64,000 nt of DNA from a virus: positions 1 through 64,000 of the IMG/VR virus record IMGVR_UViG_3300013233_000195, one strand, 5' to 3'. This document shows, piece after piece, positions 1-63,310 of the stretch; within the stretch, counting starts at the first letter, position 1, and every line of letters begins with the position of its first letter. The position numbers were made by a program, and so were the translations under genes. The notes under the pieces were generated by a model that was not told where the DNA came from, made no database searches, and worked only from the letters and a program-made list of their open reading frames with translations.

Positions 1-39
1 CTATTGTAGTAAGAAGATAAGAGTATTGTATAACATTAT

Positions 40-32476: not shown

Positions 32477-33262
32477 GTGAAGCGATTCATCCTGTATGGT
32501 CGAGGCCGGTGTGGGTCAACCCCCGTAGCAGACGAGATCGACCGAGGGGTACATAGTGCTTGTGTGCTAGAGCCCTTTATTGACAAGGAAAGCATGGGAC
32601 CAGGAATTCATATTCCCCTTAAGTTTGATCTGTGGTTAGAGCATCATGGGATTCCATCAAGTATGGCTTCGGTAGTGTATAGCCCCTATCTGGAGTACAT
32701 GGAAACAACAGTAAGTCAGCGAAGAGATATTTCTGCTTTTGGATTCAAGATTATTGCTAATCAGATGACAGAACGAAGAGGGTTGTTAAAGACACTAAGG
32801 AGAAACAACTTTGAGATCCTCTTCCTCATTAGAAAAAATGTGATTAGACAAGCAATCTCTTCAATGATAGCTGAACAGCGAGGAGTCTACAATGCAAAGG
32901 GCTATACCCCTCCTGAGTCAGAATCTTTTGTATTAGATACTTCTACTCTTGCCGAGGCAGCAGCAAGATTTGAAAGAAGCAATGAGGAGACTCAGCAACT
33001 CTTTGAGGAGATGGGATTTCCTGTTCATACATTTTATTATGAAGACTACTGTAGTAACAGAAGAGCATTTCTGATCCGAGTTCAGAGAACTCTTCAACTC
33101 TCTCAGTTAAATCCAACGGAGACACGGTATTCAATAATGACTCCAAGAGATTTGACTACAATCATAAGCAACTTAAGTCAGGTACGAGAACAGCTCAAGA
33201 GACATAATTCTGAATATGTGGAGATGCTGGATAACCCGGAGTACGGACATGAAACCACTTAA
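32477..33262 (+). CDS. sulfotransferase, Stf0-like
   Basis: 5'-PSB loop RCGST, EPF, GFK, LIRKN..RQAIS (3'-PB), YED. Confidence 0.82.
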   Translation: MKRFILYGRGRCGSTPVADEIDRGVHSACVLEPFIDKESMGPGIHIPLKFDLWLEHHGIPSSMASVVYSPYLEYMETTVSQRRDISAFGFKIIANQMTERRGLLKTLRRNNFEILFLIRKNVIRQAISSMIAEQRGVYNAKGYTPPESESFVLDTSTLAEAAARFERSNEETQQLFEEMGFPVHTFYYEDYCSNRRAFLIRVQRTLQLSQLNPTETRYSIMTPRDLTTIISNLSQVREQLKRHNSEYVEMLDNPEYGHETT

Positions 33263-34472
33263 TATATGGGGAAAAGAGTTCATTGATGACCCCACAATGA
33301 AGCAGATGCAGCGGTGTATGTCCTTGCCAATCACTGTGGCTGGGGCACTTATGCCTGATGCTCATTTGGGCTATGGACTTCCCATTGGTGGTGTTCTAGC
33401 TACGAAAGATGCTGTGATCCCTTATGCTGTTGGTGTGGACATTGCTTGTAGGGTGATGCTCTCCGTCCTACCTATTACTCAGGTTGGAAGTCAAGATCCA
33501 TTGAACATTCTGGGCAACGATCTAAAGGAAGCTATTGATGAATCTACTTGCTTTGGGGTTGGTAGCTCCTTTGAGACGGAAGATCGCAGACAGCATAAGG
33601 TTCTAGATGATCCCCGCTGGGGAACGTTAGAAAGGCATATTCCAGACATCGTGGATCTTGCATGGAGACAACTTGGTACTTCAGGAGCAGGCAACCACTT
33701 CATTGATATTGGCATGTTAGAGTTACAAGAGCCCTACCAGACAGGAGATAATGGTGGTACACATCGGCTAGATGCTGGAACCTATCTTGCCATCCTAACT
33801 CACAGTGGCTCAAGGGGACCTGGGTATAAAGTATGTAATCACTACTCTCAAATAGCACAGTGGATGAATGTCAGCCTTAGTGACGAGCAGAAGCATCTGG
33901 CTTGGCTTCCGCTAGACACAGAGGAAGGTCAGGAGTATTGGAACGCAATGGAACTGATGGGAGAATATGCTTCGGCAAACCACCATTTAATACATCAAGG
34001 AATCTATAATCATCTCAATGTCTCCCCTTCTTTAGTGATTGAGAACCACCATAACTTTGCCTGGAAGGTGAATCCTACAGGACTTCCTGAAGATGAGATC
34101 ATTCTCCATCGAAAGGGGGCTACCCCGGCAGAAGAGGGAGATGTGGGAGCCATTCCAGGTACATTTGCTTCGCCCACTTTTGTTGTGCGGGGACTTGGCA
34201 ACGAGCAAGCTCTGTGGTCCTCCGCACATGGAGCGGGGAGGGCCTTGAGTCGGAAGAAAGCTAAGATGTCTCTCTCCTGGGATATGATCGAGCCTACGCT
34301 AAAGAAGGAGAAGATTGAGGTTATGTCCTCCTCACTAGATGAGCTACCATTTGCCTATAAGTGCATAGAACGAATTATGAAGGCCCAAAAGGATCTAGTA
34401 GAGATCTTTGGTGTTTTCCATCCAAGACTTGTTAAGATGGCTACGGGTAAGAAACTACACAGAACTTCCTAA
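33216..34472 (+). CDS. rtcB: RtcB RNA ligase
   Basis: MPDAHLGYGLPIGG, GVDIAC, GNHF, HSGSRG, HHN, HRKGA, HGAGR, YK; probable start 33249. Confidence 0.95.
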   Translation: MWRCWITRSTDMKPLNIWGKEFIDDPTMKQMQRCMSLPITVAGALMPDAHLGYGLPIGGVLATKDAVIPYAVGVDIACRVMLSVLPITQVGSQDPLNILGNDLKEAIDESTCFGVGSSFETEDRRQHKVLDDPRWGTLERHIPDIVDLAWRQLGTSGAGNHFIDIGMLELQEPYQTGDNGGTHRLDAGTYLAILTHSGSRGPGYKVCNHYSQIAQWMNVSLSDEQKHLAWLPLDTEEGQEYWNAMELMGEYASANHHLIHQGIYNHLNVSPSLVIENHHNFAWKVNPTGLPEDEIILHRKGATPAEEGDVGAIPGTFASPTFVVRGLGNEQALWSSAHGAGRALSRKKAKMSLSWDMIEPTLKKEKIEVMSSSLDELPFAYKCIERIMKAQKDLVEIFGVFHPRLVKMATGKKLHRTS

Positions 34473-35504: not shown

Positions 35505-36045
35505 GAGACCAACGGAACAAGTTGTCTATGCGATCGTGTGTAGCAACTATACGCCGCCAGAGGTCTATGCTCTGTATGAGAAGGAAGAGGATGCGGAGAA
35601 GGCCCTTGCGAAAGCCTCAAAAGAAATTGAGTCTCTTCGAATTATGCCAATGGTATTGCATCTTCACACCCCATCAGCTACAATCAAGTTTTCAAAGCGA
35701 AAGCTGAATACTCTTAAGGAAGTTGCGGAGATTGCAAAGCACGACGACGTATACGTTGTAGGGCCACATCGAGATGGCTCTTACAACGAACTAATACAGC
35801 TTCATTTGGACTATCTTCCCGATTGGGAGAGAGTCACTAAGAGTCGTTTGCAAGATCCCTTTAACCACCATGCAGTAATTGCGATCCCCCTTTCAGAGCA
35901 AGCTATCATGGGCAGAGACATTCACTATTACTATGTGTGGGGAGATCCTCTCTACTTCTCAACACAGGCGCTGAACGCTTTAGAAACTCTGAATACTCTT
36001 GTAACTCTACTTGACGTTGATCTTGATAAGGAGAAGGAAGAATGA
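35497..36045 (+). CDS. hypothetical protein
   Basis: ORF track. Confidence 0.6.
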   Translation: MARRPTEQVVYAIVCSNYTPPEVYALYEKEEDAEKALAKASKEIESLRIMPMVLHLHTPSATIKFSKRKLNTLKEVAEIAKHDDVYVVGPHRDGSYNELIQLHLDYLPDWERVTKSRLQDPFNHHAVIAIPLSEQAIMGRDIHYYYVWGDPLYFSTQALNALETLNTLVTLLDVDLDKEKEE

Positions 36046-36446
36046 ATAGCAATCAAGACAAAAGCATCTCTTCGGTTAAGAGAGTCTGCTACTCCTGTGG
36101 TACTGACCTGTCCTCTTGGTGGATGACAACTTGGTGGTCTGATGAAACGGGAGAGCCCGTTGGTCCTTATTGCCAGGATTGTCTGAACAAAGCTAGACAG
36201 ACCTATAGGGAGAGAATGGCGACAATGTTCCTTACACCGGAGAAGATGCTAAAGCGTTGGGCTGAGCGAAATGTTCCGGATGACCCCTTTGCAGTTGCTT
36301 CTCGTGAGATTCGGATAGCGCGGAAAATTATCCGCGCTACTTGGAAAGAGGATATGGGCTCCATACGTCCACGTCGCGCAATTACTCTGCTCAATAAGAT
36401 GTTCGCATACATTCGTACTGTTCTGGAAATAGGAGAAGAAGAATGA
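36042..36446 (+). CDS. hypothetical protein with CxxC pairs
   Basis: CYSC...CQDC; ATGA coupling. Confidence 0.65.
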   Translation: MNSNQDKSISSVKRVCYSCGTDLSSWWMTTWWSDETGEPVGPYCQDCLNKARQTYRERMATMFLTPEKMLKRWAERNVPDDPFAVASREIRIARKIIRATWKEDMGSIRPRRAITLLNKMFAYIRTVLEIGEEE

Positions 36447-36820
36447 AGAAGAACAAAGTGAAGCTGACGAAGCAAAAGACATTAAGATATTGGGCAAACT
36501 ACGCTGTTACAGAGTCAGAGAGAACTGTTGCTCACGAGGTACTGATGCTGCGGGAGATTGTGCGAGCATTCTGGTTGGAAGATAACTCACAGGGAGATAG
36601 CCGGGGACTTGTTTTTCGACACTATCACATTCCTTCCGAGGAACAAGCTGCCTGGATTCACGCTGTGCTCAATGACGCTGGGCCAGATGGTGTAACAGTA
36701 AAACTCAAGAAAGAGGACGCCGAGTGGCTGGCGAGACCGTGCTCCCGACATGGAAGGTACGCCTGCATGTTCCGCATCAAAGAAGCGGTGAAGCGAGCGC
36801 TGGACGCGAGTGATGAGTAG
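36443..36820 (+). CDS. hypothetical protein
   Basis: ORF track; ATGA coupling. Confidence 0.65.
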   Translation: MKKNKVKLTKQKTLRYWANYAVTESERTVAHEVLMLREIVRAFWLEDNSQGDSRGLVFRHYHIPSEEQAAWIHAVLNDAGPDGVTVKLKKEDAEWLARPCSRHGRYACMFRIKEAVKRALDASDE

Positions 36821-36904
36821 CGGCGGGCGGAAGAAGCCGCCCTTCGTGCCGGACCAGGCCCTATTTACAGGGAGGAGCCTAATGAAAATAAGGAGGATTG
36901 GCAT

Positions 36905-37057
36905 TTGGATGCACTAGACCATCTAGCTATTGTGCTATATGGAAGGCCAGCTACTGCGAGAGAGTATTTGGGGGGATCTAATGCAAAGATTCTTGAAGAC
37001 GCGGCGAAGATACTGGAAAGACTTTTGTGTGAGCTAAAGGAGAAAGACAATGAGTAG
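36905..37057 (+). CDS. small hypothetical protein (50 aa, below the track cut-off)
   Basis: TTG start after AAGGAGG, open to TAG at 37055-37057. Confidence 0.45.
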   Translation: MDALDHLAIVLYGRPATAREYLGGSNAKILEDAAKILERLLCELKEKDNE

Positions 37058-37259
37058 TGGTGGAAGAAAGAAGCCGGTATTCCTCCCGAACCCAAGGCTG
37101 ACGGTGGGCGAAGCAAGAGCCCTTCGTAGTTCGAAGGTTATTATGGGGTGGGGGGATGTAATGAGGGTCCATGCCCCAAACTGTAGGTGCCCTGCGTGCC
37201 GTGGCATCCGCAAGCTCCGCGCCGCGCTCAAGCGGATGGAAGAGGAGGAGAAGCCGTGA
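37050..37259 (+). CDS. hypothetical protein
   Basis: AAGGAG RBS; CRCPAC motif. Confidence 0.6.
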   Translation: MSSGGRKKPVFLPNPRLTVGEARALRSSKVIMGWGDVMRVHAPNCRCPACRGIRKLRAALKRMEEEEKP

Positions 37260-37639
37260 AGATCGACCACCGCGAGCTGGAGCGCGACCTGGCCCGCAAC
37301 CCGGCGGACTACGACGATGACAAGGTGCAGACGCGAACCTGCCACTTAGCCAACCAGTACGGGCACGTCTTTGGAAAGGTGGTACTGGCTCCTGAATGCG
37401 GGAGCGACTTCTGTGATAGCTGCGGCGATTGTTTGGGCTGTTCGCAAGCAGACGGTCCCTGCCTCGTGGACGAAGACGGGAACCACTTCTGGGTCCATTA
37501 CAGCGACGACGTGGAGGCGTTGAAAAAGTGGCTCGAAGAAAGGGAGGTGGACGAGGCGCACAGGGAAAAGCTGGTCGCCACCTGGAGTGATTTCGACCCA
37601 CTCAAGCAGGCAGAGAAGGAGGAAAAAAACAATGAGTGA
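37187..37639 (+). CDS. Cys-rich hypothetical protein
   Basis: CGSDFCDSCGDCLGC; probable GTG start 37256. Confidence 0.6.
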   Translation: MPCVPWHPQAPRRAQADGRGGEAVKIDHRELERDLARNPADYDDDKVQTRTCHLANQYGHVFGKVVLAPECGSDFCDSCGDCLGCSQADGPCLVDEDGNHFWVHYSDDVEALKKWLEEREVDEAHREKLVATWSDFDPLKQAEKEEKNNE

Positions 37640-38037
37640 TCACAAGGGAGAAGTGGGAAGCCGACGTGTTCTACGAGGTCTGGAGGCTAGTGATGATTAA
37701 CCTAGACGACAACCGCCGGACGGGGCGTACATCACGGATGCTCGCTGAGGCAGAACGCTTGGTTCGCGAGGAGGGCAAGCCTGTTCTAATTGTTGCGGCG
37801 AACTATGCTCAGTCCGAGGCCCTTCTCAAGCAGATTCCAAAGGATATTTCTGGTTCGATAGAAGTGCTTACTCTCCGAGAAGCGGCAACGCGGATCGACT
37901 TCGGCGAGGGCGATTGGCCCCGGATGTGGGGTTTTTGTGTCTGCCTGGCAGATCACTACGCGACCGAGTTGTTTCTGGAGGAATGTGCTGGGTGGCTGAT
38001 TGATCAGAGGAATCAGTGGGAAGCTGGAGGTGAGTGA
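37636..38037 (+). CDS. hypothetical protein with P-loop-like remnant
   Basis: RRTGRTS motif followed by VLIVAAN. Confidence 0.55.
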   Translation: MITREKWEADVFYEVWRLVMINLDDNRRTGRTSRMLAEAERLVREEGKPVLIVAANYAQSEALLKQIPKDISGSIEVLTLREAATRIDFGEGDWPRMWGFCVCLADHYATELFLEECAGWLIDQRNQWEAGGE

Positions 38038-39116
38038 TGCGAATTGAAGAGTTGCAGCTACACAACTTCCGCCGCTATGAAGCCGCTTTGTTCCGTTTCC
38101 ACCCACAGTTCACAGTCCTCGTCGGTGACAACGGGAAGGGCAAGACAACGGTGCTTGATGCACTGGCGGTGCTGTTTGGCACCTACTTTCAGGGTTCGGG
38201 GATTGAGATAGGGCGACGAACAATCCAGAAGTCAGACGCACGCTTCGTCGTACACGAAGTCGAGGGGCAGGTCTCGTTCGAGCCGCAACGCACGGTCTAC
38301 CTCAAGGCGACGGTGGAAACCGGTGGCCGGTTGCTCACCTGGAGGCGAGATCTTGGAGATCGGGGCTCCAAGGCCCGAGAGCTTATTGAGTTGGGAGCGC
38401 AGCATCGCGATAGGGTCGCGGCGGGAGACTTCACCGACCTCCCGCTGATGCTCTACTATGGCTCGGGTCGGCTGTGGTGCCCTCACAAGGATGTGCAGCC
38501 CGACCGCCCAGGCTCTCGCCTGGATGCATATCGCTTCAGCCTTGACCCCAAGTCCGACCACAAGGGCTTCGAGAGGTGGTTCAAGCGCCTCACATACGCC
38601 GCGCTTCAGAAGGGCACGGAAAGCCCGGCAATTGAGGCGGTCGCGCACGTCGTGAAGTCTTGCATCCCGGATGCACAATCTTTTTTCTTCGACACTGGTG
38701 GGGACCACATGGTCCTCTCCTTGGATGATGGGGAGTCGGTCCCTTTCGACAACCTCTCGGATGGCTTTCGGAACATGGTCGCGATGGTTGCGGACATCGC
38801 CCATCGTGCGAGCCGCCTCAACCCCCACCTCGGAGCGGACGCCCCCGCTCTCACGCGGGGGATTGTGCTCATCGACGAGATCGACCTCCATCTCCATCCG
38901 CGCTGGCAACGACGTGTCGTCCACGACCTGAAGACCGCCTTCCCGGCACTCCAGTTCATCGCCACCACCCATTCGCCGTTCATCCTTCAATCTCTCAGTC
39001 CCGGCGAGGTCATCGACCTTGATCTCGACACGAGCGCAGCCATCGTCAAGGCGACCCTGCCAGGAGCCGCGGCGCTGGCGAAGAAGGAGGCTATAAAAGA
39101 TGAAAAGCGATCTTGA
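38034..39116 (+). CDS. ABC-type (AAA_21-like) ATPase resembling Septu/retron PtuA
   Basis: LHNFR, GDNGKGKTT, YYGSGR, LSDG, LIDEIDLHLHP.WQ, QFIATTHSP; GC-rich DNA. Confidence 0.85.
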   Translation: MMRIEELQLHNFRRYEAALFRFHPQFTVLVGDNGKGKTTVLDALAVLFGTYFQGSGIEIGRRTIQKSDARFVVHEVEGQVSFEPQRTVYLKATVETGGRLLTWRRDLGDRGSKARELIELGAQHRDRVAAGDFTDLPLMLYYGSGRLWCPHKDVQPDRPGSRLDAYRFSLDPKSDHKGFERWFKRLTYAALQKGTESPAIEAVAHVVKSCIPDAQSFFFDTGGDHMVLSLDDGESVPFDNLSDGFRNMVAMVADIAHRASRLNPHLGADAPALTRGIVLIDEIDLHLHPRWQRRVVHDLKTAFPALQFIATTHSPFILQSLSPGEVIDLDLDTSAAIVKATLPGAAALAKKEAIKDEKRS

Positions 39117-39399
39117 AATCCACGAAGAATGTGCTAGAATTCAGGAACAACTAGAAAATCAGCGCGATGAGGCCATCGCTCGTGCAGACAGACTTGAACG
39201 GGAGCGAGCGGATGAGCGCGACCATCCGTGGGCCGACTTTCTGGCCGCTAGGGTCCGGGCCATCAGATGGCTGCGCTCACAGAGGAAAACGAGCGGGGAA
39301 ATCGCACAAGCGGTGTCACTGGATGCTTCGCAGGTGTTTTCGATCCTGCTCAAGAGTGATATTCTGCCGGAGGAGACTCACATGGAGGAGAAGTCATGA
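39100..39399 (+). CDS. hypothetical protein with C-terminal HTH-like segment
   Basis: TSGEIAQAVSL...QVFSIL. Confidence 0.6.
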   Translation: MKSDLEIHEECARIQEQLENQRDEAIARADRLERERADERDHPWADFLAARVRAIRWLRSQRKTSGEIAQAVSLDASQVFSILLKSDILPEETHMEEKS

Positions 39400-39734
39400 A
39401 AGGACGTAGACCGTGGCGGCCTCACCCAAAAGCTGATTCCTTGATTCTCGACGTTGACGGGCATGTTGTGTGCAAGGTCTCTCTGCCCACCGGACAACCA
39501 GCGAAGCCAATCCGGGACATGGTGGTGCGTGCGGTGAACCTTTATGAAAGAGTGCAAGGGACCCGAGAAGAGAGGCCAAGTGTTATACTTGCCGATGACA
39601 AGCCAAGGAAGGTTAACGTAGATTGTCGGAAGTCTCGTACTCGTCATTCCCGGCAAGTCAGGAGACTTCCAAGATTTGTGCCGGATCGGTTTGCTAGCTC
39701 AAAGGGCCTCTGGACAAAAGGAGATGCAAAATGA
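39396..39734 (+). CDS. hypothetical protein
   Basis: ORF track; ATGA coupling. Confidence 0.6.
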   Translation: MKGRRPWRPHPKADSLILDVDGHVVCKVSLPTGQPAKPIRDMVVRAVNLYERVQGTREERPSVILADDKPRKVNVDCRKSRTRHSRQVRRLPRFVPDRFASSKGLWTKGDAK

Positions 39735-39928
39735 AGTTCAAACCACTTACAAGACAGCAGTTAGAAACACTTAGAGATGATGATGGCATTGCAGTCTTTG
39801 AACCCGACACATGGCAAGTTGCTTGTACCGCTCTCTATTACCTGGACCTACTTTGCGATGCCACTATCCGGGCTGAGAGACTTGAACGGGAAATACAAGA
39901 TTCCAATTCAGAAGAAGAAAATAAATGA
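39731..39928 (+). CDS. hypothetical protein
   Basis: ORF track; ATGA coupling. Confidence 0.6.
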   Translation: MKFKPLTRQQLETLRDDDGIAVFEPDTWQVACTALYYLDLLCDATIRAERLEREIQDSNSEEENK

Positions 39929-40098
39929 GAAAATCAACAAAAGGTGTCTTTACAAAAGTCTTCTTTGCTGCCCTCTTTGCAATGGCAGGTGCTCAAGTCC
40001 TTGGAGTTCCTGCACAGTTGATTGCTGGAGGTGGACTAATTATTGCTGCCGCACTCTTCCTTGTGGTGGCTCTTGTAGACTTTCTTATTCCCCTTTAA
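39925..40098 (+). CDS. small membrane protein (57 aa)
   Basis: Manual translation MRKSTKGVFTKVFFAALFAM...; two hydrophobic segments. Confidence 0.55.
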   Translation: MRKSTKGVFTKVFFAALFAMAGAQVLGVPAQLIAGGGLIIAAALFLVVALVDFLIPL

Positions 40099-40108
40099 GG
40101 AGAACACA

Positions 40109-40744
40109 ATGCAGTATCCAAAGATTCAATCTGTTTGGAAAAGAGATCCAAAAACGCCCAAGTATCTTTTGGAAGGCCAGTGGACCACACCAGAATTCGA
40201 GTACCTTAAGGATCTCTTCTGGGAGTGGACGGAGAAGGTTGATGGAATGAATATCCGAGTCATCTGGGACAAGGATAGCCCCCAGCCACTTCGGTTCGCT
40301 GGTAGGACGGACAGAGCACAGATCCCAACATTTCTACTAGACAAACTTTTTGAGTTGTTCCCACCAACTAAGTTTGCAGACTTTCCAGATCAGATTACTC
40401 TGTTTGGAGAAGGTTACGGTGAAAAGATTCAGAAGGGTGGGGGCAATTACGGCGAGCCTTCCTTTGTGCTTTTCGATGTTTTCTGTGGCATGTGGCTCAA
40501 AAGAGACAATGTTAATGACATCGCCGCAGTGCTAGGTATTCGATCTGTGCCAGTCGTAGGTTTTGGGACTCTTCCAGAACTGGTTAAGTATGCTGAAGCT
40601 GGTCCCGACTCATGCTGGGGAGATTTCACTGCTGAAGGATTTGTTGCCCGCCCAACATTTGAGTTGCTTGACAGAAGAGGAAACAGAATCATCACAAAGA
40701 TAAAGTACAAGGACTTTAATCATGGAGATTCAAATGTCGTTTGA
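40109..40744 (+). CDS. ATP-dependent RNA ligase, Rnl2-like nucleotidyltransferase domain
   Basis: YPKI, EKVDGMN (KxDG), FGEGYG, FDV, EGFV, KIK. Confidence 0.85.
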   Translation: MQYPKIQSVWKRDPKTPKYLLEGQWTTPEFEYLKDLFWEWTEKVDGMNIRVIWDKDSPQPLRFAGRTDRAQIPTFLLDKLFELFPPTKFADFPDQITLFGEGYGEKIQKGGGNYGEPSFVLFDVFCGMWLKRDNVNDIAAVLGIRSVPVVGFGTLPELVKYAEAGPDSCWGDFTAEGFVARPTFELLDRRGNRIITKIKYKDFNHGDSNVV

Positions 40745-40892
40745 TAGCGCTGTAAAGGTCTCTAGAATCATTATAACGGTTGCATCTGGTTTCACAGGCA
40801 TCTTCCTCCTTGGAGCGGCCCCAAAAACCATTCTAGGTATCTTCCTGCTTGCTTATGCGTTTATCCGCATCATAGGAGATCTCTACTTATGA
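40734..40892 (+). CDS. small membrane protein (52 aa)
   Basis: Manual translation MSFDSAVKVSRIIITVASG...; two hydrophobic segments. Confidence 0.5.
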   Translation: MSFDSAVKVSRIIITVASGFTGIFLLGAAPKTILGIFLLAYAFIRIIGDLYL

Positions 40893-40995
40893 AGACCAAA
40901 AAACCAACAATTCTAGACAATAACAACCTTACTAGAAAAGAGCGTAAGGCGGTTATACGAGCACTTTATCAACTCATCCAAAACTTAGAGGATCA

Positions 40996-41325
40996 ATGGC
41001 AATTATGGAAAAGATGACAAGTACACAAGAACAACCGACCACACTAAGACTTTGTCACCGCTCCGAAGCCCCCAAAACATCTTTGACTTTTGAGACCGCA
41101 TTACCAGTCTACAACAAGCTCAAGCCATTTCTAGCCCTTCGTAAAAACCTTCTATTCCCAGGGCAGTTTAGATCAGCCGGAAAACATCGTTGTTTGGCAA
41201 CCTCCGCAAGAATGTTTACCGAAGTCGTGTGGGCACCAAATCCAGCGCAAAAATACAGAAGGCTCAGATACGACGAGTTCTGCGCATACTACAACATTTA
41301 CCCTTTCAATGGTCGTGAATTTTAA
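40996..41325 (+). CDS. hypothetical protein
   Basis: ORF track, GAGG RBS. Confidence 0.55.
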   Translation: MAIMEKMTSTQEQPTTLRLCHRSEAPKTSLTFETALPVYNKLKPFLALRKNLLFPGQFRSAGKHRCLATSARMFTEVVWAPNPAQKYRRLRYDEFCAYYNIYPFNGREF

Positions 41326-42017
41326 TGCTTACCGTAGGTTCCTGCTTTACTGGCATCGGTGGTATTGATATTGGGCTCTCACTAGCAGGGCTCAAAGTCC
41401 TTTGGCAGATTGAAATAGATCCCCAATGCCAAAGAATCCTAAAATCCCATTGGCCCATCACAACACTTTACAAGGATATTTGCAATGTTCCAAAGACAAT
41501 CAAGCACGTTGACGTTATCACTGGAGGTATCCCCTGCCAACCCACAAGCCAAGCAGCCGCCAGAACCCACAGGGGGAAACATTGGATGTGGCCTCCCTTC
41601 TTCAACCTTATCAAAACTCTCAAACCCAAATACGTTATCATTGAAAATCCCCAAAGTCTTCGCTTCCGTCAAAGAGGACTTGGCGAAATACTCCAAGACT
41701 TGGCCCAAATCGGGTATGATGCGGAATGGTCTGTGTTACGAGCTTCCGACATTGGAGCACCACACAGAAGAGCCCGAATATGGGTGGTTGCCCACCCCCA
41801 CAGCAAAAGCAAACCAGACAGCACCATCCATGCAGAAGCACCGCTCCTGTCGCAATTTACAAAGACTGTTCCCTGGCCCGATCCACCCAAACATATTCGA
41901 ATGGCTTCTTGGGTTCCCCATAGATATGACAGACTTAGAATGCTTGGAAACGCGGCCATGCCCGCCATGGCCCACACAATAGGAGAATACATTCTCAATC
42001 ATAATGGAGAATCATGA
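41325..42017 (+). CDS. DNA (cytosine-5) methyltransferase, main (alpha-like) polypeptide
   Basis: FTGIGG (I), GIPCQ (IV), ENP (VI), HRRARIW (VIII), LGNA (X); no motif IX in this frame. Confidence 0.9.
   Translation: MLTVGSCFTGIGGIDIGLSLAGLKVLWQIEIDPQCQRILKSHWPITTLYKDICNVPKTIKHVDVITGGIPCQPTSQAAARTHRGKHWMWPPFFNLIKTLKPKYVIIENPQSLRFRQRGLGEILQDLAQIGYDAEWSVLRASDIGAPHRRARIWVVAHPHSKSKPDSTIHAEAPLLSQFTKTVPWPDPPKHIRMASWVPHRYDRLRMLGNAAMPAMAHTIGEYILNHNGES
41716..41982 (+). CDS. nested alternative-frame beta-like subunit of the C5 methyltransferase
   Basis: WLPTP and PNIFEWLLGFP (motif IX-like) in the +1 frame; frame is open from 41485, so the start is uncertain. Confidence 0.7.
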   Translation: MMRNGLCYELPTLEHHTEEPEYGWLPTPTAKANQTAPSMQKHRSCRNLQRLFPGPIHPNIFEWLLGFPIDMTDLECLETRPCPPWPTQ

Positions 42018-42238
42018 AACCTTTTAGAATTGTCCACACAAAGGAAACCAATCATTATGAAATCCGTGAAATCGTCTATGACACAAACAAGAACATTGTA
42101 AACTCTTTTCCCACAATCCTTGTAGAAGCAACACAAGAAGAACTCTTACAAAAGGTTAAAGATATAATGGAAGCGTTCTCCTCCCCAGTTTTACACTCTT
42201 CACCACTACATAGACGTAGTAGGCTAAAAGAACACTAA
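42014..42238 (+). CDS. hypothetical protein
   Basis: YEIREIVYD; ATGA coupling. Confidence 0.6.
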   Translation: MKPFRIVHTKETNHYEIREIVYDTNKNIVNSFPTILVEATQEELLQKVKDIMEAFSSPVLHSSPLHRRSRLKEH

Positions 42239-42280
42239 AGATACTGAGATAACCATTATCATCACACAAAGGATAATAAA

Positions 42281-42499
42281 ATGAGAACAAAACAAGATCA
42301 ACTATGCCCGCGCTGTATGGGCACAGGAACCTACATATTTCCAGGCGACTCGACCCCAACCTCCTGTGAGTGGTGCCATACCACTGGCAAGGTAGACCGG
42401 TACACAAAAGATAGGTGTATAGAGTTCTACAGACAACAGAAACAAAAGAAGCACATCTCCACCCTCCCAATCCATTTGAGGCCAGCACAGGGCAAATGA
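42281..42499 (+). CDS. small DnaJ-type zinc-finger-like protein
   Basis: CPRCMGTG...CEWCHTTG. Confidence 0.6.
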   Translation: MRTKQDQLCPRCMGTGTYIFPGDSTPTSCEWCHTTGKVDRYTKDRCIEFYRQQKQKKHISTLPIHLRPAQGK

Positions 42500-42554
42500 G
42501 GGGGACTACAAGCGATTCTCACACAAGAGTTGAGCACAGGGAGTGGCCCCCGCT

Positions 42555-42700
42555 TGTGCTCGTTAGTATAACATACCATTTTTTTGAGCTAAATTTACAT
42601 TGGCTAATTTTTTTTGAGCTTCTGTGCTCTCACCTGTGCTCTTTAGTGTAACATACCATTTTTTTGAGTCATTTTTATGGTGGCTATTTTTTAGCTTAGT
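42555..42700. repeat. two imperfect direct repeats, 80-bp period
   Basis: TGTGCTCnTTAGTrTAACATACCATTTTTTTGAG at 42555 and 42635, each followed by TGGCTA and a T run. Confidence 0.85.
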
Positions 42701-42813
42701 TCATGCCACCTTGAGATTTCCGATTTTGGAGTAAAAGATATCTATATCTTTTTATCCGGAGTTGGACTGGCGGAATGCCCCACGCGCGCGTTGCGCGTGG
42801 GGCCCGCCCCTAC

Positions 42814-43491
42814 CTACTCCGCGTCGTCGTCCGCGTCGTCGTCCGCGTCGTCGTCCGCGTCGTCGTCCGCGTCGTCGTCCGCGTCGATCAACGCGCGGAC
42901 GGCCGATTCGGACGCATCCCGCTCCAGCGTATCAAGCTGGCGGGCCAGCGTTTCGTGATCGGCGATCACGCGTCCCAAAAGCGTGTCGTCGTCCCCAGTA
43001 GGACGTTCCAAGAGAGAACGAACCCCGCGCAATGCCGACAGATAGAGTTTGTCATGATTCAGAACCGGATACCAGATAGACTTTTGAACCCCCTCCATCG
43101 CAAGCCGGGCCTCAGGCTTGTGGGCAAGGTGCGCAGGGAGTCCGGAAACAATCGCGGCTTGCGCCGTCCATCGGGCGGTTTTTCCCGCCGCGTGATAGGC
43201 GACTAGCCGACATTCTCGAAGTACTGTATCGGCCTCTTTTCCACCTACCTTGTAGGCGTGAATCTCCACCTCCTGCCCCTTGGGTTTGCGTCCACGCCGC
43301 GTAGCTTTGCCTGATACTCCCTCCGCGATCTTTCGGATTGCGTCAAGGGGATCATCATCGGCCACCATTCCGAGAATCCCGACACCGGCCAAGCCAATCA
43401 TGCCGACCAAGGTGCCAGCGTTGACGACTTGCGCCACAAGCTCCAACGCGAGCAACGCAAGAGCAAAAACGAGGAGCCAAGAACTACGCAT
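42814..43491 (-). CDS. membrane-anchored hypothetical protein with (DDAD)n acidic tail
   Basis: GGAGG RBS, hydrophobic N-terminus, GC-rich DNA. Confidence 0.65.
   Translation of the reverse strand: MRSSWLLVFALALLALELVAQVVNAGTLVGMIGLAGVGILGMVADDDPLDAIRKIAEGVSGKATRRGRKPKGQEVEIHAYKVGGKEADTVLRECRLVAYHAAGKTARWTAQAAIVSGLPAHLAHKPEARLAMEGVQKSIWYPVLNHDKLYLSALRGVRSLLERPTGDDDTLLGRVIADHETLARQLDTLERDASESAVRALIDADDDADDDADDDADDDADDDAE
42818..42886. repeat. 12-bp tandem repeat, 5.75 copies
   Basis: (TCCGCGTCGTCG)x5 plus 9 bp. Confidence 0.95.
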
Positions 43492-43494
43492 AAC

Positions 43495-43683
43495 CTACCT
43501 TCCTTCCATGCGCCGACAATCGGCGCGCTTGCGGGCCCTCACGGTCCCTACGATAGGGACCATGAACAACCCGATCAATCCTAGCAGGCTACAACCCACT
43601 AGTGCCACGACTACGCCGCCCCTTGCGCCGTCGCCGTGGACTAGTGCATAGTCCATGCCAGACTCTATCCCGTTGATTTTCAA
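43495..43683 (-). CDS. small membrane protein
   Basis: One hydrophobic segment and basic tail; probable start 43656. Confidence 0.5.
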   Translation of the reverse strand: MKINGIESGMDYALVHGDGARGGVVVALVGCSLLGLIGLFMVPIVGTVRARKRADCRRMEGR

Positions 43684-43943
43684 CGACTTAGGTTTTCGCC
43701 GATCCGTCGATCCGTCAAGCCCACCGACACCATCCCGACGGCCAAAACGGCGTAACTCGTTGTCACGTAAGGAGTTAGGCCATTTTCGACCAGCGTAAAG
43801 AATTCCGTCAACGGTAAAATCGACCGAAACTCGGAAACGCCGAATTCAGCCCCTACAGGCCGAATACGCCCATTCTGCGGTAGGTCCAGAATTATCGAAA
43901 GATTCCGTCGATCTGGCCTAACTTGAGAAAAATCAACGGGTTA
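43666..43943. promoter_or_regulatory. three 25-bp IHF-like dyad sites
   Basis: 43666-43690, 43753-43777, 43919-43943, each TA...TTA; AATCAACGGGTTA (43931-43943) matches WATCAANNNNTTR exactly. Confidence 0.65.
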
Positions 43944-43979
43944 CGAGGTTCCAGGTTTCGGCTGGCGGATCGGACGGTT

Positions 43980-44064
43980 TGGCACGATTCTTGCTCAAAT
44001 CTCGAGGGTTTTTTTTGGCACGATTCTTGCTCTGGCACGATTCTTGCTCTGGCACGATTCTTGC
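43980..44064 (+). promoter_or_regulatory. cluster of four identical sigma54 (-24/-12) boxes
   Basis: TGGCACGATTCTTGC at 43980, 44016, 44033, 44050 (TGGCAC-N5-TTGC; last three on a 17-bp period). Confidence 0.8.
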
Positions 44065-44542
44065 TCAACGGCCAAATGATAATAGATTCCCATTCTCAAC
44101 CCCCCCCATGCTAAACATATCTATAGTGTATTCTATACTGTATATTGCTTATCTTATTTCTAATCTTATATTCCAATCCAGTCTTCTAATATTCCAGCCA
44201 GTTATTAGTATTCTATTCCGATCTCCCCAATTTCTTGTTAGAATGGGGCCAAAATCGACTAGAATTTCTTATATTGATAGTATGAGCCCAATACAGTCAA
44301 TATAGCGTTTTTCACCTCCCCAAAATGCGTATATTGATAGATAGCTGGGATTATTCCTAAAGGAAACGCACTTTAGCCTTTTCAGAACCGCTATAATCTT
44401 TGTATTTCACAGGGGATAATATCAGGCTAATAACAGTATTATTTATCGCCACAATCAACCGATTTCGGTTGCCATCGCCAGTAAGGCGTCTAGCTTGCGC
44501 TCTAAGCGATTTTCATCTTTGGGGATGCCTGGAGTACCCTAT

Positions 44543-44644
44543 TCGACGATCGTCGATCCTGACGCAATTCAGGGCCGTTCCCGTCGATTCTCCGCCCGTG
44601 ATCGGGACGCAATTCCCGATTCCGGGAATCTGGACGCGATACCA
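44543..44644. other. cluster of palindromes and hairpins sharing a loop sequence
   Basis: TCGACGATCGTCGA; CCTGA-CGCAAT-TCAGG; ATCGGGA-CGCAAT-TCCCGAT; GATTCC-G-GGAATC; TGGA-CGCGAT-ACCA. Confidence 0.7.
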
Positions 44645-44658
44645 CAATATGAATATAC

Positions 44659-44698
44659 AAAAAAAATAGGCGCTAGGAGGAATCCCCTAGCACCTATT
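44659..44698 (-). terminator. intrinsic terminator
   Basis: Minus strand AATAGGTGCTAGGGGATTCCTCCTAGCGCCTATT followed by a T tract. Confidence 0.8.
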
Positions 44699-44717
44699 AC
44701 TATAGAAGACTAGATTA

Positions 44718-44939
44718 CTAGTCTTCTATCCTCCTGTAGGAAAAGCACGCGCAAAGCTCCTCAGGATCATACGACTCTCTGTATCTCTTTGCAAGAGCCA
44801 GAGCTTCCCTGTGCGTGTCCACAATCCCGATCCGGATTTCCCCATCTGGGACTTCCATATAGACTTCAATCATCTTCTTCCTCCTCCAGAAGATCATGAA
44901 CCGCCCCACAGTCTTCACAAATGGCACAAGTAATGCCAT
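44718..44939 (-). CDS. hypothetical protein
   Basis: ORF track; true start probably MIEVYM. Confidence 0.55.
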   Translation of the reverse strand: MALLVPFVKTVGRFMIFWRRKKMIEVYMEVPDGEIRIGIVDTHREALALAKRYRESYDPEELCACFSYRRIED

Positions 44940-45219
44940 CTACGAGCCTTCCGCCGCACATACAATACCGGATGGTATTGCTATTCTCTTCGTCCAGTGC
45001 ATTCCGAATTGAATGATTCAATTCGGAGAGCTTTTCTAGCCCCACAATATGGGCAGGAAGAATATACTCCTCTTCCTGCCCATAGGGGATTCCGGTTCCT
45101 TCAGCCATTGTTATTCTCCAAATCGTGAAGGAACGAGTCAACAACGTTTGCGGCCTTTTCTTCCACACCATATCTTTGCAGATACTCGTGGAGAATATGG
45201 TTGATAGAATCATCATCAT
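44866..45219 (-). CDS. hypothetical zinc-ribbon protein
   Basis: CMCGG...CEDCG; true start probably MAEGTG. Confidence 0.55.
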   Translation of the reverse strand: MMMILSTIFSTSICKDMVWKKRPQTLLTRSFTIWRITMAEGTGIPYGQEEEYILPAHIVGLEKLSELNHSIRNALDEENSNTIRYCMCGGRLVDGITCAICEDCGAVHDLLEEEEDD

Positions 45220-45568
45220 CCATATCCATAAGCATGAAGAGGCTGTTTTCCAAATCGTCCTTCAATTCCGATTCTTCCAATTCTCCATGCTTATACGCTT
45301 CCCCGAGAAGATCCGCAAGGAAATGGAAAGAACTAACGATGAGAGTCCGAAAAGTCTTATCGTCAATTCCACTATCTAGGCCAGCCTCATGCCCATTGTG
45401 AAGAAAACTCACAAAAGGCATGAGAGAACTTGTCAATTGGAGCCACAATCTTAGTGACTCCAAAGAATGATCTTTGTTCATTCTAAGCCTCCTTCCTTTC
45501 CTCCTGGAGAGCCACAATGATATTCTGAGTGATAAGATCACACTCCTTATCACTAAGGACATCCTCAT
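45101..45568 (-). CDS. acidic hypothetical protein
   Basis: ORF track; probable start MNKDH after GGAGG. Confidence 0.6.
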   Translation of the reverse strand: MRMSLVIRSVILSLRISLWLSRRKGRRLRMNKDHSLESLRLWLQLTSSLMPFVSFLHNGHEAGLDSGIDDKTFRTLIVSSFHFLADLLGEAYKHGELEESELKDDLENSLFMLMDMDDDDSINHILHEYLQRYGVEEKAANVVDSFLHDLENNNG

Positions 45569-45634
45569 ACGAATACAGCAGACTTTGCAAATCGCCCATA
45601 AACTGGGCGATTCTGAGAGACAGATCCTGTTCCA

Positions 45635-45839
45635 TTACATATCCTCCCTGCGGCCATAAAGGCCCAAAAGAGTAAGAATGAGACTATCCACAACGTATCT
45701 AACGTCAGTGTTATCATGCTTGGCACACAGGTCCAGAAGACTAAGCACAATTTGAACAAGTCTTCCAGTAACAGGTTCACTATCAATGCTAATAGGAAGA
45801 GTCAGAGTATAGACTTCAGTCTTGGTGCGAAGCTCCATA
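45635..45839 (-). CDS. hypothetical protein
   Basis: Start MELRTK after AGGAGG within the 45635-46012 frame. Confidence 0.5.
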
Positions 45840-45940
45840 TCTAACCTCCTATGGAAAGAGAAAAGAGAAAAAGTAATATCTAATAGGCTTTGCAAGCCTA
45901 CGCTCCAAGTATCGACCCGGACCCGGGGGCCGGTCAAGCT

Positions 45941-45969: not shown

Positions 45970-45984
45970 TGGCACGATTCTTGC
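45970..45984 (+). promoter_or_regulatory. sigma54 box
   Basis: TGGCACGATTCTTGC. Confidence 0.75.
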
Positions 45985-46073
45985 GGGGCCGGCCAGATGG
46001 CCTACTGAACAAACGTATAGTAAAATTTGAAAATCCTTTTTATTGATTGATTTTTTCCCCTTCCGCTGTTTAT

Positions 46074-46247
46074 CTTATAATCTCTTTTATATCGCCTAGC
46101 TTATCTTATGGGGGATTTCTTATCGGGTGTCTTATCTCTAATGAGGCTTCATATCGGCTATCTTATTCTATCATGCTTGACTCTTATCTTATCGGGGCTC
46201 TTATAGTGGTTTATATCTTATAATGGAATTCTTATCGGGTGTCTTAT
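46074..46247. repeat. CTTAT-rich non-coding tract
   Basis: About 12 CTTAT pentamers; TTCTTATCGGGTGTCTTAT twice (46117, 46229) and a variant near 46187. Confidence 0.8.
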
Positions 46248-46250
46248 AAT

Positions 46251-46285
46251 AAAAAAGGGGATAAGAGCTTTCGCTCTTATCCCCT
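46251..46285 (-). terminator. intrinsic terminator
   Basis: Perfect stem GGGGATAAGAGC-GAAA-GCTCTTATCCCC followed by T6 on the minus strand. Confidence 0.9.
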
Positions 46286-48988: not shown

Positions 48989-49024
48989 TCTCCTTTCTCT
49001 TGGGGACTTTCCCCTAGCGCTTGC

Positions 49025-49053
49025 ATTATACCATGGCGAGACGTGGCTGTCAA
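49025..49053 (-). promoter_or_regulatory. consensus sigma70 promoter
   Basis: Minus strand TTGACA-17 bp-TATAAT with TG extension. Confidence 0.9.
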
Positions 49054-49073: not shown

Positions 49074-49088
49074 TGGCACGATTCTTGC
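49074..49088 (+). promoter_or_regulatory. sigma54 box
   Basis: TGGCACGATTCTTGC, 20 bp from the opposite-strand -35. Confidence 0.75.
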
Positions 49089-49187
49089 GGGGCCGGACAA
49101 CCGTCGGTTTTCGCCTTTTCTTCAAACTTTCGGGATAAATTGAAACAAATGTTTTCACTTTTTTATATTTCCGCCATTATTGAGTTA

Positions 49188-51611: not shown

Positions 51612-51665
51612 ATCCTCCTAGATGGAAGTTTTGGAGTGCTTGGGGACTTTCCCCTAGCGCCTATA

Positions 51666-51694
51666 ATTATACCACGGCGGAGATCGGGTGTCAA
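51666..51694 (-). promoter_or_regulatory. consensus sigma70 promoter
   Basis: Minus strand TTGACA-17 bp-TATAAT with TG extension. Confidence 0.9.
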
Positions 51695-51714: not shown

Positions 51715-51729
51715 TGGCACGATTCTTGC
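51715..51729 (+). promoter_or_regulatory. sigma54 box
   Basis: TGGCACGATTCTTGC, 20 bp from the opposite-strand -35. Confidence 0.75.
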
Positions 51730-51749
51730 GAGGAGCCACAAGCGGAGAC

Positions 51750-58668: not shown

Positions 58669-58743
58669 TGGTGTCCTGCATGGGAATCGAACCCATTTCT
58701 GGGGGTTGAAGGCCCCCGATCCTAACCAATAGACGAGCAGGAC
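58669..58743 (-). tRNA. tRNA-Glu(UUC) with C33
   Basis: Cloverleaf; GGGGG-CCTTCAA-CCCCC arm, TTCGATT loop, encoded CCA. Confidence 0.85.
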
Positions 58744-58967
58744 TATACACCTTTGCTATTTTCTTCTTTATCAATCCAATTTCCAATGTCTTGCAAAAGG
58801 GACGCACCGACAACAACGCAACCCCAGTAGAAGAAAAAGAAGGAGAAGAAAACTCCCAGAAAAGCTAAGACACCAACTTTTGATAAAATCAGTGGTAGAG
58901 AATACTTCACCAGGCAGAAAGCACTCACAAGAAATGTGAGTATCTTTGCAACAATCTTTCTGGTCAT
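58743..58967 (-). CDS. small membrane protein
   Basis: Two hydrophobic segments, GGAG RBS. Confidence 0.55.
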   Translation of the reverse strand: MTRKIVAKILTFLVSAFCLVKYSLPLILSKVGVLAFLGVFFSFFFFYWGCVVVGASLLQDIGNWIDKEENSKGV

Positions 58968-59018
58968 CTCCGCCCCCCTTTACTATGTTGGGGGAACTGG
59001 ATTCTCTCCAGTCCCCCC

Positions 59019-59047
59019 ATTCTACCACATCCAGAGCAGGATGTCAA
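59019..59047 (-). promoter_or_regulatory. sigma70 promoter followed by a leader hairpin
   Basis: Minus strand TTGACA-17 bp-TAGAAT with TGTGG; hairpin at 58990-59018. Confidence 0.82.
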
Positions 59048-59054
59048 GGAAAAA

Positions 59055-59870
59055 TTACCAACCCAGGTCGATCCCCGCCGTTAGGAGAGTCAAAGCCTGT
59101 ACCTGCTCAGTCTCCAGCCGGTCATACCTTACTCTCAGATCTAGATCAAGAGAAAGATACTTCACTAGAGCATACTCAAAGTCCATCTCTCCCTCAACCA
59201 CGGAGTCGGCGAAATCTTCGTCCACAGGGTAGAAGAGTTCAAGAGAACGGTTAAGAGTTAAGTTCTCCCACCAAGTAGGCAGAACACTTGTGGAAGACAG
59301 AAGAATCCCATAATCATTCCTTGGAGAGCTTTCTCCTGTGAAAACGGGATAATCTGAAACCGTTCGACGGTAGCGGAAGCCTAGCTCGTTGAACCCATTG
59401 TCATTCTGGACCTGATAAGCAAAATCTGAGTCCAGGGTGTAAGGGTCAAAAGGCTCCACTACTTGCGTTCCATCGGCCTTGAAAACATTATCAATGCCTG
59501 TGGTGCCCCGAACGCGGGCAAGAACGAAAGAGTTGCTTGTGGAGTCTCCTAGCGCCCTTCCAAGCGAAACAGCAAGCCTACCTCGGTTTAGAAATGGGTT
59601 CCGGTCCTCATTCTTACCATCGTGAGCACCATACTCCACGTCAATGGAGTAAAGGGTCTGTAGACCAATAAAGGTGAGAAAATCAACCTGATTCTGAAGT
59701 TGAAGTTCTCCGCGATAGGTGTACTGCTCCTGGCCACCGCGTGCCCAGTTGTCATTGAAACTAGCCATACCCTGAAGTTCTACATCTCCTGCCGCGAAGG
59801 CACCTGTTGCCCAGCATACAATAGCTGAGGTCAAGGCACCTAGAATGAACCACTTGATCTTATTCTTCAT
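59055..59870 (-). CDS. putative outer-membrane beta-barrel protein
   Basis: Signal peptide ending AFA, alternating amphipathic strands, C-terminal AGIDLGW. Confidence 0.7.
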   Translation of the reverse strand: MKNKIKWFILGALTSAIVCWATGAFAAGDVELQGMASFNDNWARGGQEQYTYRGELQLQNQVDFLTFIGLQTLYSIDVEYGAHDGKNEDRNPFLNRGRLAVSLGRALGDSTSNSFVLARVRGTTGIDNVFKADGTQVVEPFDPYTLDSDFAYQVQNDNGFNELGFRYRRTVSDYPVFTGESSPRNDYGILLSSTSVLPTWWENLTLNRSLELFYPVDEDFADSVVEGEMDFEYALVKYLSLDLDLRVRYDRLETEQVQALTLLTAGIDLGW

Positions 59871-60431
59871 TTATTCCCTCCATAAAAGTCGGGGATTGAT
59901 TGCTACGTTGTTGTCCAAAACCTCGTAATGCAAATGGTAGCCCCTGGCGTTGCCGGTATTTCCAACAGTTCCAAGTATATCCCCTTGAACTACTTCTTTG
60001 CCCTTATAGACATTTGTTCTGTCTAGATGGGCGTATACTGTCGCAAGACCATTCTGGTGATCTACACAGACAGTATTTCCATATCCAGGGTAATAGCCTA
60101 CCTCAGTCACAACTCCTGTTGCGGTGACTTTGATGGGAGTTCCCCATGGAGAAGCAAGATCAATCCCGGTATGATCTCTGGTTCTTAGTTTCCCAAACCC
60201 CGCACTTACTGGACCGGGAACAGGCGGAGAAAGGGGAAGATGAGAAATAGACTTTTCTATGTCATATTCCACCCCCTGCATTGACTCAGTATTTTCTTTG
60301 AGTTGGAAGACCTCCTGCTCTAGGATAGTTACCCTCTGTGAGAGATCCTCTATATGGGACATGAAAAACCCAGCCCCAACAAAAAGTCCCCATGCAATAG
60401 CACAGAGGATGATAGCAAAGGTGTATCGCAT
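59871..60431 (-). CDS. M23 metallopeptidase with N-terminal membrane anchor
   Basis: HTGID, GYGN, YAHL, VGNTG, HLHYEV. Confidence 0.92.
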   Translation of the reverse strand: MRYTFAIILCAIAWGLFVGAGFFMSHIEDLSQRVTILEQEVFQLKENTESMQGVEYDIEKSISHLPLSPPVPGPVSAGFGKLRTRDHTGIDLASPWGTPIKVTATGVVTEVGYYPGYGNTVCVDHQNGLATVYAHLDRTNVYKGKEVVQGDILGTVGNTGNARGYHLHYEVLDNNVAINPRLLWRE

Positions 60432-60452
60432 TGCTTTGCCCCCAATAAAAAG

Positions 60453-60528
60453 TGGAAGCCCCGGTGGGATTCGAACCCACGGCTTGCTCATTAGAAGTGA
60501 GCCACTCTGTCCACTGAGTTACGGGGCC
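60453..60528 (-). tRNA. tRNA-Arg(UCU)
   Basis: GCTCA-CTTCTAA-TGAGC arm, TTCGAAT, encoded CCA. Confidence 0.92.
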
Positions 60529-60533
60529 TCTTA

Positions 60534-60902: not shown

Positions 60903-60915
60903 CTCCTTTTAGTAG

Positions 60916-60991
60916 TGGCACCCCCGGCAGGAATCAAACCCGCATCTTCACGGTTCGTAGCCGTGTGCCTTGTTCATTAGACCACAGGGGC
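60916..60991 (-). tRNA. tRNA-Arg(ACG)
   Basis: CACGG-CTACGAA-CCGTG arm, encoded CCA; A19/U56 variant. Confidence 0.88.
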
Positions 60992-60992
60992 A

Positions 60993-61355: not shown

Positions 61356-61370
61356 CTTCTTCTCCTTATG

Positions 61371-62027: not shown

Positions 62028-62028
62028 T

Positions 62029-63005: not shown

Positions 63006-63014
63006 AGCTTTCCC

Positions 63015-63206: not shown

Positions 63207-63225
63207 TGGCTTTCTCCTAAAAGGT

Positions 63226-63304: not shown

Positions 63305-63310
63305 AATTTT

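Follow-up and report, generated by a model that had tools for sequence, protein, structure and literature searches.

Sigma-54 is the sole bacterial sigma factor whose holoenzyme waits silently until an ATPase fires it, and the host programmes under its control include phage shock, RNA repair, flagella, pili and some defence regulators. The holoenzyme binds DNA as a stable, silent closed complex (PMC3844500, PMC4591121). The closest described systems are bacterial sigma-54 promoters with activator sites and integration host factor (IHF), such as glnAp2, nifH and Pu (PMC3844500), and the silent or intragenic holoenzyme sites of E. coli and Salmonella, for which decoy function, transcriptional interference and sigma competition have been proposed (PMC4591121, PMC3844500). 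The literature that we searched yielded two phage cases only: a sigma-54-like promoter in Pseudomonas phage YuA (Ceyssens et al. 2008, as cited in PMC10914365) and, in a Pectobacterium phage, a putative sigma-54-like protein. Here we describe a set of seven sigma-54-like boxes, four of them in a tight array, in a 64,000-nucleotide stretch of viral DNA (the window) that makes up the first 64 kb of the 100,623-bp IMG/VR record IMGVR_UViG_3300013233_000195 (CheckV completeness 37%). With a probability of roughly 0.4, we favour the reading that these boxes would be genuine docking sites for the sigma-54 holoenzyme, selected for occupancy and not for a product.

The locus resembles bacterial sigma-54 promoters in its exact TGGCACG-N4-TTGC core, its intergenic position and the presence of repeats and an IHF-like match in the enhancer range, but it differs from them in having four copies at spacings of 36, 17 and 17 bp, no downstream gene or defined RNA, an orientation against the local genes, no activator gene and identical spacers. 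It shares with the silent bacterial sites a high (here predicted) affinity and the lack of an obvious regulated gene, and many of those sites are likewise antisense. However, the silent sites are single, scattered, mostly intragenic and often sub-consensus, whereas the boxes described here are perfect, intergenic, arrayed and phased with sigma-70 promoters. YuA also uses the host sigma-54 recognition sequence, but the passage of PMC10914365 that cites it presents just one promoter, whose start is mapped and which precedes genes, and describes neither an array nor a back-to-back design. Finally, transcription-factor decoy arrays (PMC3322331, PMC8599769) contain repeated high-affinity sites able to titrate a scarce factor, as the present boxes could; in our case the target would be a sigma factor or its holoenzyme, and the sites would be borne by a phage genome that replicates. 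Taken singly, the site is a sigma-54 element of the textbook kind. It departs from known promoters in combining an array, an against-gene orientation, phased pairing with sigma-70 promoters and a lack of any product.

The record contains exactly seven copies of the 15-mer TGGCACGATTCTTGC, every one on the + strand. The first-pass annotation of this DNA had reported four identical boxes, the last three at a 17-bp period, and these proved to be exact copies of TGGCACGATTCTTGCT with start-to-start distances of 36, 17 and 17 bp. The three other 15-mers had escaped that annotation and, being paired with sigma-70 promoters, they alter the picture. The seven boxes are:

43980..43995, + strand, sigma-54 box 1, predicted +1 near 44006
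44016..44031, + strand, sigma-54 box 2
44033..44048, + strand, sigma-54 box 3
44050..44065, + strand, sigma-54 box 4, predicted +1 near 44076
45970..45985, + strand, sigma-54 box 5
49074..49089, + strand, sigma-54 box 6, inside a duplicated cassette of ~110 bp
51715..51730, + strand, sigma-54 box 7, likewise in the duplicated cassette; the T-run of the upstream leftward terminator is ~10 bp away

When up to three mismatches were allowed, the window contained 9 matches to the box against 0.64 expected, a count reached by 0 of 100 shuffled sequences. The boxes read TGGCACG-N4-TTGC(T/G), and the earlier equation of the box with the -24/-12 consensus of RpoN held at every conserved position in all seven copies, with GG at -24, GC at -12 and 10 nt between them. 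The consensus used for this comparison was that of the Salmonella sites in PMC3844500; the core TGGCACG-N4-TTGC is also found among the sites defined there by chromatin immunoprecipitation. The base that follows the 15-mer, at -11 (the W of TTGCW), is T in the array boxes and G in the single boxes. The single boxes are in addition G+C-rich from -11 to +1, in a genome of 42-46% G+C, and are therefore poorly suited to melting. All seven N5 spacers are identical, and descent through tandem duplication and cassette duplication explains only part of this identity. None of the seven sites lies ahead of a co-directional gene.

Boxes 5-7 are intergenic. Each has a leftward sigma-70 promoter close by, lies on its upstream side and is divergent from it:

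45908..45937, - strand, leftward sigma-70 promoter TTGACC-18-GATACT, 32 bp from box 5
49025..49053, - strand, consensus leftward sigma-70 promoter TTGACA-17-TATAAT, 20 bp from box 6
51666..51694, - strand, consensus leftward sigma-70 promoter TTGACA-17-TATAAT, 20 bp from box 7

The array and each of these boxes point at the leftward operon that precedes them, at its 3' end or its terminator, such that four consecutive leftward transcription units each have a box or the array on their upstream side. The leftward partner of the array, a pair of cargo genes, has merely a weak sigma-70-like site (43811..43782), unlike the promoters beside the single boxes. The same back-to-back design recurs elsewhere: a perfect TATAAT-16..18-TTGACA promoter diverging from a box at 12-40 bp was found in 52 viral stretches, which form 29 sequence clusters, where our own arithmetic gives a chance expectation of ~1. 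The gaps between the -35 element and the box cluster at 19-23, 29-35 and 38-40 bp, and a Rayleigh test of these gaps gave p values of 0.0003-0.004 for periods of 9.5-10.5 bp (0.006 when corrected for the period scan). In the window, the gaps are 20, 20 and 32 bp and coincide with these peaks. In many modules the DNA between promoter and box is rich in A/T tracts and resembles an UP element. The gene beyond the box was on the opposite strand in 14 cases and co-directional in 13; because opposite-strand genes are as frequent as same-strand genes, driving a gene is not the main role of the box. The recurrence and phasing of these modules point to two polymerase sites that may be physically coupled, with a box that would not serve a gene.

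At the start of the leaders of the two consensus sigma-70 early promoters we observed a perfect dyad, GGGGACTTTCCCC (49002-49014 and 51642-51654). We considered it as an enhancer at -93 and set this idea aside: many early leaders of the phage open with GGGG...CCCC hairpins, so the dyad is more likely the 5' stem of the mRNA and probably acts as a 5' mRNA stabiliser.

We also looked for the box in other phage and metagenome DNA. At blastn sensitivity the box region had no match in the phage collection, and no close relative was found in viral contigs for the flanking proteins or the portal protein. The best portal relatives are 30-44% identical, and 1 of 10 long contigs carrying them has a box cluster. 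This distant relative (32% identity) contains four + strand boxes with four different spacers in a non-coding control region of 1.4 kb. Its boxes lie at 4208-4437 of locus L205 (record G009), and the identical 19-mer AGATAGGAAAAACTTGCCT comes after each of two of them. On one side the 1.4-kb gap is bordered by 60-bp A+T-rich repeats, on the other by 500 bp of repeat-rich DNA, at whose end lie a sigma-70 promoter and small zinc-ribbon genes. The same 15-mer is arrayed in at least four groups of contigs that have no proteins in common with the present phage, an observation that a phage-specific protein would not explain. A census of viral stretches for same-strand TGGCAC-N5-TTGC pairs 2-32 bp apart, with the reversed pattern as control, returned at least 120 stretches against 9 for the control. 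Among the matches listed, adjacent boxes differed in N5 in 152 of 190 viral pairs. Positions -11 and -10, which are outside the search pattern, agreed with the consensus in being A/T in 84% and 74% of the boxes in arrays. The proposed check that GG and GC stay fixed while N5 varies was thus passed by the class of paired boxes and by the one portal relative; it applies at that level and not to homologous sites, as the search returned no close relatives. A reader conserved among hosts, namely sigma-54, accounts for the 15-mer in unrelated contigs, the excess of pairs, the varied N5 and the bias at -11 and -10, and an operator private to the phage does not. The notion that such arrays are confined to phages was abandoned, as 5 of the 401 bacterial genomes searched in one phylum contained same-strand pairs (0 with the reversed control), a density that is not comparable with that of the viral stretches.

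These data bear on whether the 15-mer could instead be the operator or iteron of a phage-encoded protein and only look like a sigma-54 site, with the array and its adjoining A+T-rich zone forming a regulatory sink or an origin of the iteron type, while the single copies would act as operators upstream of early promoters. Iteron-type origins such as lambda ori and P1 oriR have tandem direct repeats of ~17-19 bp beside an A+T-rich stretch. At least three direct repeats beside such a stretch are expected of an iteron origin, and the array has four repeats, in part contiguous at 17 bp, followed by 374 bp at 35% G+C. The identity of N5 in all seven copies, which sigma-54 does not require, would also suit this explanation, as would the location of single copies at ~-63 and ~-76 from sigma-70 starts, within activator-binding range, and a scan of about 250,000 windows could conceivably contain a single look-alike by chance. 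However, a match to all 11-12 conserved sigma-54 positions would arise by chance at ~1e-6 to 1e-7 per motif, the box lacks dyad symmetry, and the repeat, which is itself the sigma-54 consensus, is common to contigs that share no proteins with the phage. The replication genes (DnaC-like loader, DnaB and PolA) are at 0.7-6.7 kb, 37 kb from the array, no initiator gene lies nearby, and the genes neighbouring the boxes are orphans in which a search for a DNA-binding domain found none. We consider an operator or iteron unlikely.

The close packing of the array admits a further explanation, that one box per locus is functional and the contiguous 17-bp copies are a neutral expansion by slippage. Boxes 2-4 are exact head-to-tail 17-mers, which is the signature of replication slippage, and neighbours 17 bp apart could not be occupied together by holoenzymes. 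Among the matches listed, box-to-box spacings in viral arrays peak at 26, 36, 41 and 46-47 bp, and a spacing of 17 bp is absent from the 190 pairs. On the other hand, 17-bp doublets were found in 40 metagenome stretches, which form 24 unrelated clusters against a chance expectation of roughly 1-5 by our own arithmetic, and two thirds of them have different spacers, which is not what fresh slippage would produce. Box 1 is moreover a separate copy with a different flank, 36 bp away. We therefore regard slippage as very unlikely to account for the array. Some of the 17-bp doublets recur as arrays of doublets, sometimes every 44 bp.

The footprint of the sigma-54 holoenzyme extends roughly from -34 to -5. 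Two holoenzymes therefore cannot share a 17-bp spacing, and the sites would be read in alternative registers or by a smaller ligand, for example free sigma-54. The suggestion of the first-pass annotation that a 17-bp period is too tight for independent promoters is thus physically reasonable and agrees with the viral pairs listed, yet the spacing is no peculiarity of this locus, given its recurrence in the metagenome clusters. That recurrence, mostly with different N5, makes docking more sensible than a set of separate starts. In the array, box 1 and the outer two boxes of the 17-bp trio could be occupied together, with the middle box offering an alternative register; the corresponding distances of 36 bp (boxes 1-2) and 34 bp (boxes 2-4) fit the common 35-37 class of viral arrays.

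On the favoured reading of silent docking, host sigma-54 holoenzyme would bind the four boxes of the array, which would be the multi-copy member of a seven-site set in the early region. The bound complex would stay silent, lying back-to-back and in helical register with strong phage sigma-70 promoters. Its effect could be local, as a boundary or partner of the early sigma-70 promoters, or global, with the replicating genome drawing the scarce sigma-54 pool onto phage DNA, or both. Should an activator reach the sites, their sole output would be non-coding RNA antisense to early operons. The sequences themselves, their departure from chance and the recurrence of the design are established facts; binding and these effects we infer from several features: the perfect and identical sites, the phasing with sigma-70 promoters, the indifference to what lies downstream, the lack of an activator gene or shared enhancer, the G+C-rich melting region of the single boxes and the tight packing. 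Seven perfect sites without a regulated co-directional gene are also what a sponge would look like. A roadblock or insulator against read-through fits the geometry, but the E. coli data (PMC4591121) are against it and we retain it as no more than a sub-variant.

The main alternative to docking is that these are conventional enhancer-dependent sigma-54 promoters. In this case a bEBP (bacterial enhancer-binding protein), supplied by the host or by the missing part of the genome, would fire the array rightward across a 0.6-kb zone into the antisense of operon 45895..44718, and boxes 5-7 likewise, for early shut-off or to make non-coding RNAs. The DNA into which the array and box 5 would fire contains the following features:

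44067..44440, + strand, A+T-rich non-coding zone of 374 bp, 35% G+C, with TATATTGATAG twice and TCTWAT five times
44441..44664, + strand, G+C-richer non-coding zone of 224 bp, with GACGCRAT three times and CGTCGAT twice, holding a doubtful 62-amino-acid open reading frame (ORF)
44665..44698, - strand, intrinsic terminator of the leftward operon 45895..44718, faced by the array
45986..46255, + strand, A+T-rich zone of 270 bp after box 5, 36% G+C, with 11/12 TCTTAT(C) repeats, ending at the leftward terminator 46285..46256

The perfect consensus and the T at -11 in the array boxes are what a promoter would show, and the repeats and the IHF-like match fall between -60 and -330, where enhancers usually lie (PMC3844500). 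A sigma-54-dependent promoter would be expected to have a cognate bEBP acting from an enhancer 80-150 bp upstream and a transcript that begins ~12 nt after the GC. All four loci converge systematically on the 3' end of a leftward operon, and two of them lead into non-coding zones rich in repeats (270 and 600 bp); the arrays of other phages are co-directional with the next gene at a ratio of 2:1. There is precedent in the sigma-54-like promoter of YuA, reported as mapped in the passage cited above (PMC10914365), in the firing of silent Salmonella sites by a promiscuous activator, and in the sigma-54-dependent small-RNA genes glmY and glmZ of the Salmonella site table (both PMC3844500).

Against such promoters, the 100-kb record contains no match to PF00158, the sigma-54 activator (bEBP) domain, so that the earlier statement that no activator gene is visible in the window holds for the whole record; searches of the record for a sigma-54 (rpoN) gene and for a sigma-70-family gene were equally negative. 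On direct reading, the four box loci showed no motif in common in their upstream regions. No + strand terminator was found after any box, so no discrete RNA is defined, and an Rfam search at E values up to 1 returned no RNA family apart from a spurious microRNA match. RNA structure downstream gave z-scores of -3.6 and -2.0, largely due to the hairpins of leftward terminators, and these scores weigh neither for nor against a structured RNA. Nothing downstream is convincingly coding, the single boxes are G+C-rich where they would have to melt, and starts 17 bp apart bring no gain. We see conventional promoters as the close rival of docking, though somewhat less likely than it.

The description of ~600 bp of non-coding DNA after the array was largely borne out: we found no convincing ORF in 44066-44664, and the one candidate was the 62-amino-acid ORF on the + strand (44525-44713), whose hexamer score is within the small-gene range. 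We rejected it as a regulated gene, as it has no homologue and no gene call in the protein collection and its repeated DxDAI mirrors the DNA repeats. Within the same zone, 44555-44640 contains three copies of GA(T/A)C-NN-GACGC(A/G)AT at steps of 45 and 30 bp, with two CGTCGAT nearby. The CCGTCGAT motifs beyond the array are mirrored by these repeats, and one factor may thus bind both flanks. After box 5, 12 TCTTAT(C) direct repeats lie in ~200 bp (46073-46275), out of 42 on the + strand of the record, and reach into the leftward terminator hairpin; this cluster could be a protein-binding array or specify an RNA with a repeated UCUUAUC motif.

Several considerations weigh against silent docking. 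Only 37% of the genome is in hand, and an activator could be encoded elsewhere in it. Binding of the holoenzyme is predicted, and the presence of rpoN in the host is presumed. In E. coli, intragenically bound holoenzyme gave no roadblock (PMC4591121). Overlapping sites at 17 bp add no capacity for holoenzymes, and seven identical spacers would also suit a protein that reads all 15 bases. The comparison of orientations comes from a small unbiased sample only, with 7 divergent modules against 2-4 of each other arrangement. For phage arrays as a class, the next gene was co-directional in 32 cases and not in 16 on a crude ORF map, and A+T content is slightly higher in the upstream flank than in the downstream one, as it would be for promoters. 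This flank comparison also led us to reject A+T-rich downstream DNA as a feature of the class.

Were scattered docking sites real, phages would have part of their programme wired to stress-sensing activators of the host, would use a parked polymerase as a structural element, or would titrate a host regulator; each of the three would add a new layer to the interplay of phage and host. We extend the reading beyond this phage with more hesitation, as a conjecture that is less likely to be right than wrong: phages of many lineages may park silent sigma-54 polymerase, or free sigma-54, on their own DNA through phased back-to-back modules beside their strongest sigma-70 promoters and through close-packed arrays, including 17-bp doublets too tight for two holoenzymes, as a boundary or partner of early promoters, as a sponge, or as both. 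Parking of this kind would mean that a sigma factor is used for something besides transcription, and a sponge would remove the sigma factor of stress and defence regulons.

The zone to the left of the array is 53% G+C and contains the following elements:

43666..43692, + strand, dyad element A, core TATCCCGTTG, inner palindrome CGTTGA/TCAACG
43753..43783, + strand, dyad element B, core TAACTCGTTG, overlapping the -10 of the weak leftward sigma-70-like site 43811..43782
43917..43943, - strand, dyad element C, an inverted copy with core TAACCCGTTG, including the IHF-like match 43931-43943
43703..43912, + strand, TCCGTC / CCGTCGAT motifs starting at 43703, 43711, 43804 and 43904, in ~100-bp steps

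The three dyads described by the first-pass annotation exist, and we find them to be copies of a region-specific element of ~27 bp with core TAWCYCGTTG (43666 and 43753 on the + strand, 43943 on the - strand), the only ones in the 100-kb record. The IHF site placed next to box 1 is an exact WATCAANNNNTTR at 43931-43943, 36 nt ahead of the box, but its reading as an IHF site is weak: the window holds 3 IHF-consensus matches against 3.1 expected from shuffles, this one belongs to the repeated element C, and no IHF or HU gene was found in the record. The (A/T)TCCGTC motifs noted near 43701, 43801 and 43901 are present at the starts given above, and all three copies of CCGTCGAT in the record lie within 43704-44581. 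The two leftward cargo genes (42814-43683, 60% G+C) adjoin the dyad zone and are alike in composition, so the dyad and TCCGTC zone may be the control region of these genes instead of an enhancer for the boxes. We also observed a sigma-54-like box on the opposite strand, TGGCATGGACTATGCA (43645-43660, - strand), with 9/11 consensus positions, which overlaps the likely ATG (43656) of a 53-amino-acid membrane-like ORF.

In the record as a whole, rightward genes occupy positions 1 to ~42.65 kb and include the DnaC-like loader, DnaB, a UDG-PolA fusion, RecA, SbcCD, the portal, a class II ribonucleotide reductase and RtcB. From 42.8 kb on, the genes run leftward and consist of small orphans with near-consensus sigma-70 promoters and ten tRNA genes (58669-63829). 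The array lies in the middle of the record, close to where the two gene arms converge, and the proposal of a nucleoprotein hub at the genome end accordingly finds no support. The nearest bacterial homologues of RtcB are ~50% identical and scattered across many phyla, and neither RtcB nor a protein atlas resolved the host. In some bacteria the rtcBA operon depends on sigma-54 and RtcR (PMC9879122), and a thematic link between the boxes and the RtcB RNA ligase (33216-34472) and tRNA genes of the phage is possible by analogy; the phage rtcB has no box in front of it. One early protein is a singleton among 5.8 billion proteins.

Within 36000-43683 there are G+C-rich stretches (54% over 36-40 kb and 60% over 42814-43683, compared with 46% for the phage), which look like acquired cargo at the junction of the gene arms. 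This zone contains an AAA_15/AAA_21 (PtuA-like) ATPase at 38034-39116 and a 225-amino-acid membrane protein with an acidic tail. In the rightward arm, the class II ribonucleotide reductase (21727-25065) carries a LAGLIDADG domain, in an intein-like insertion, and a TSCPD domain.

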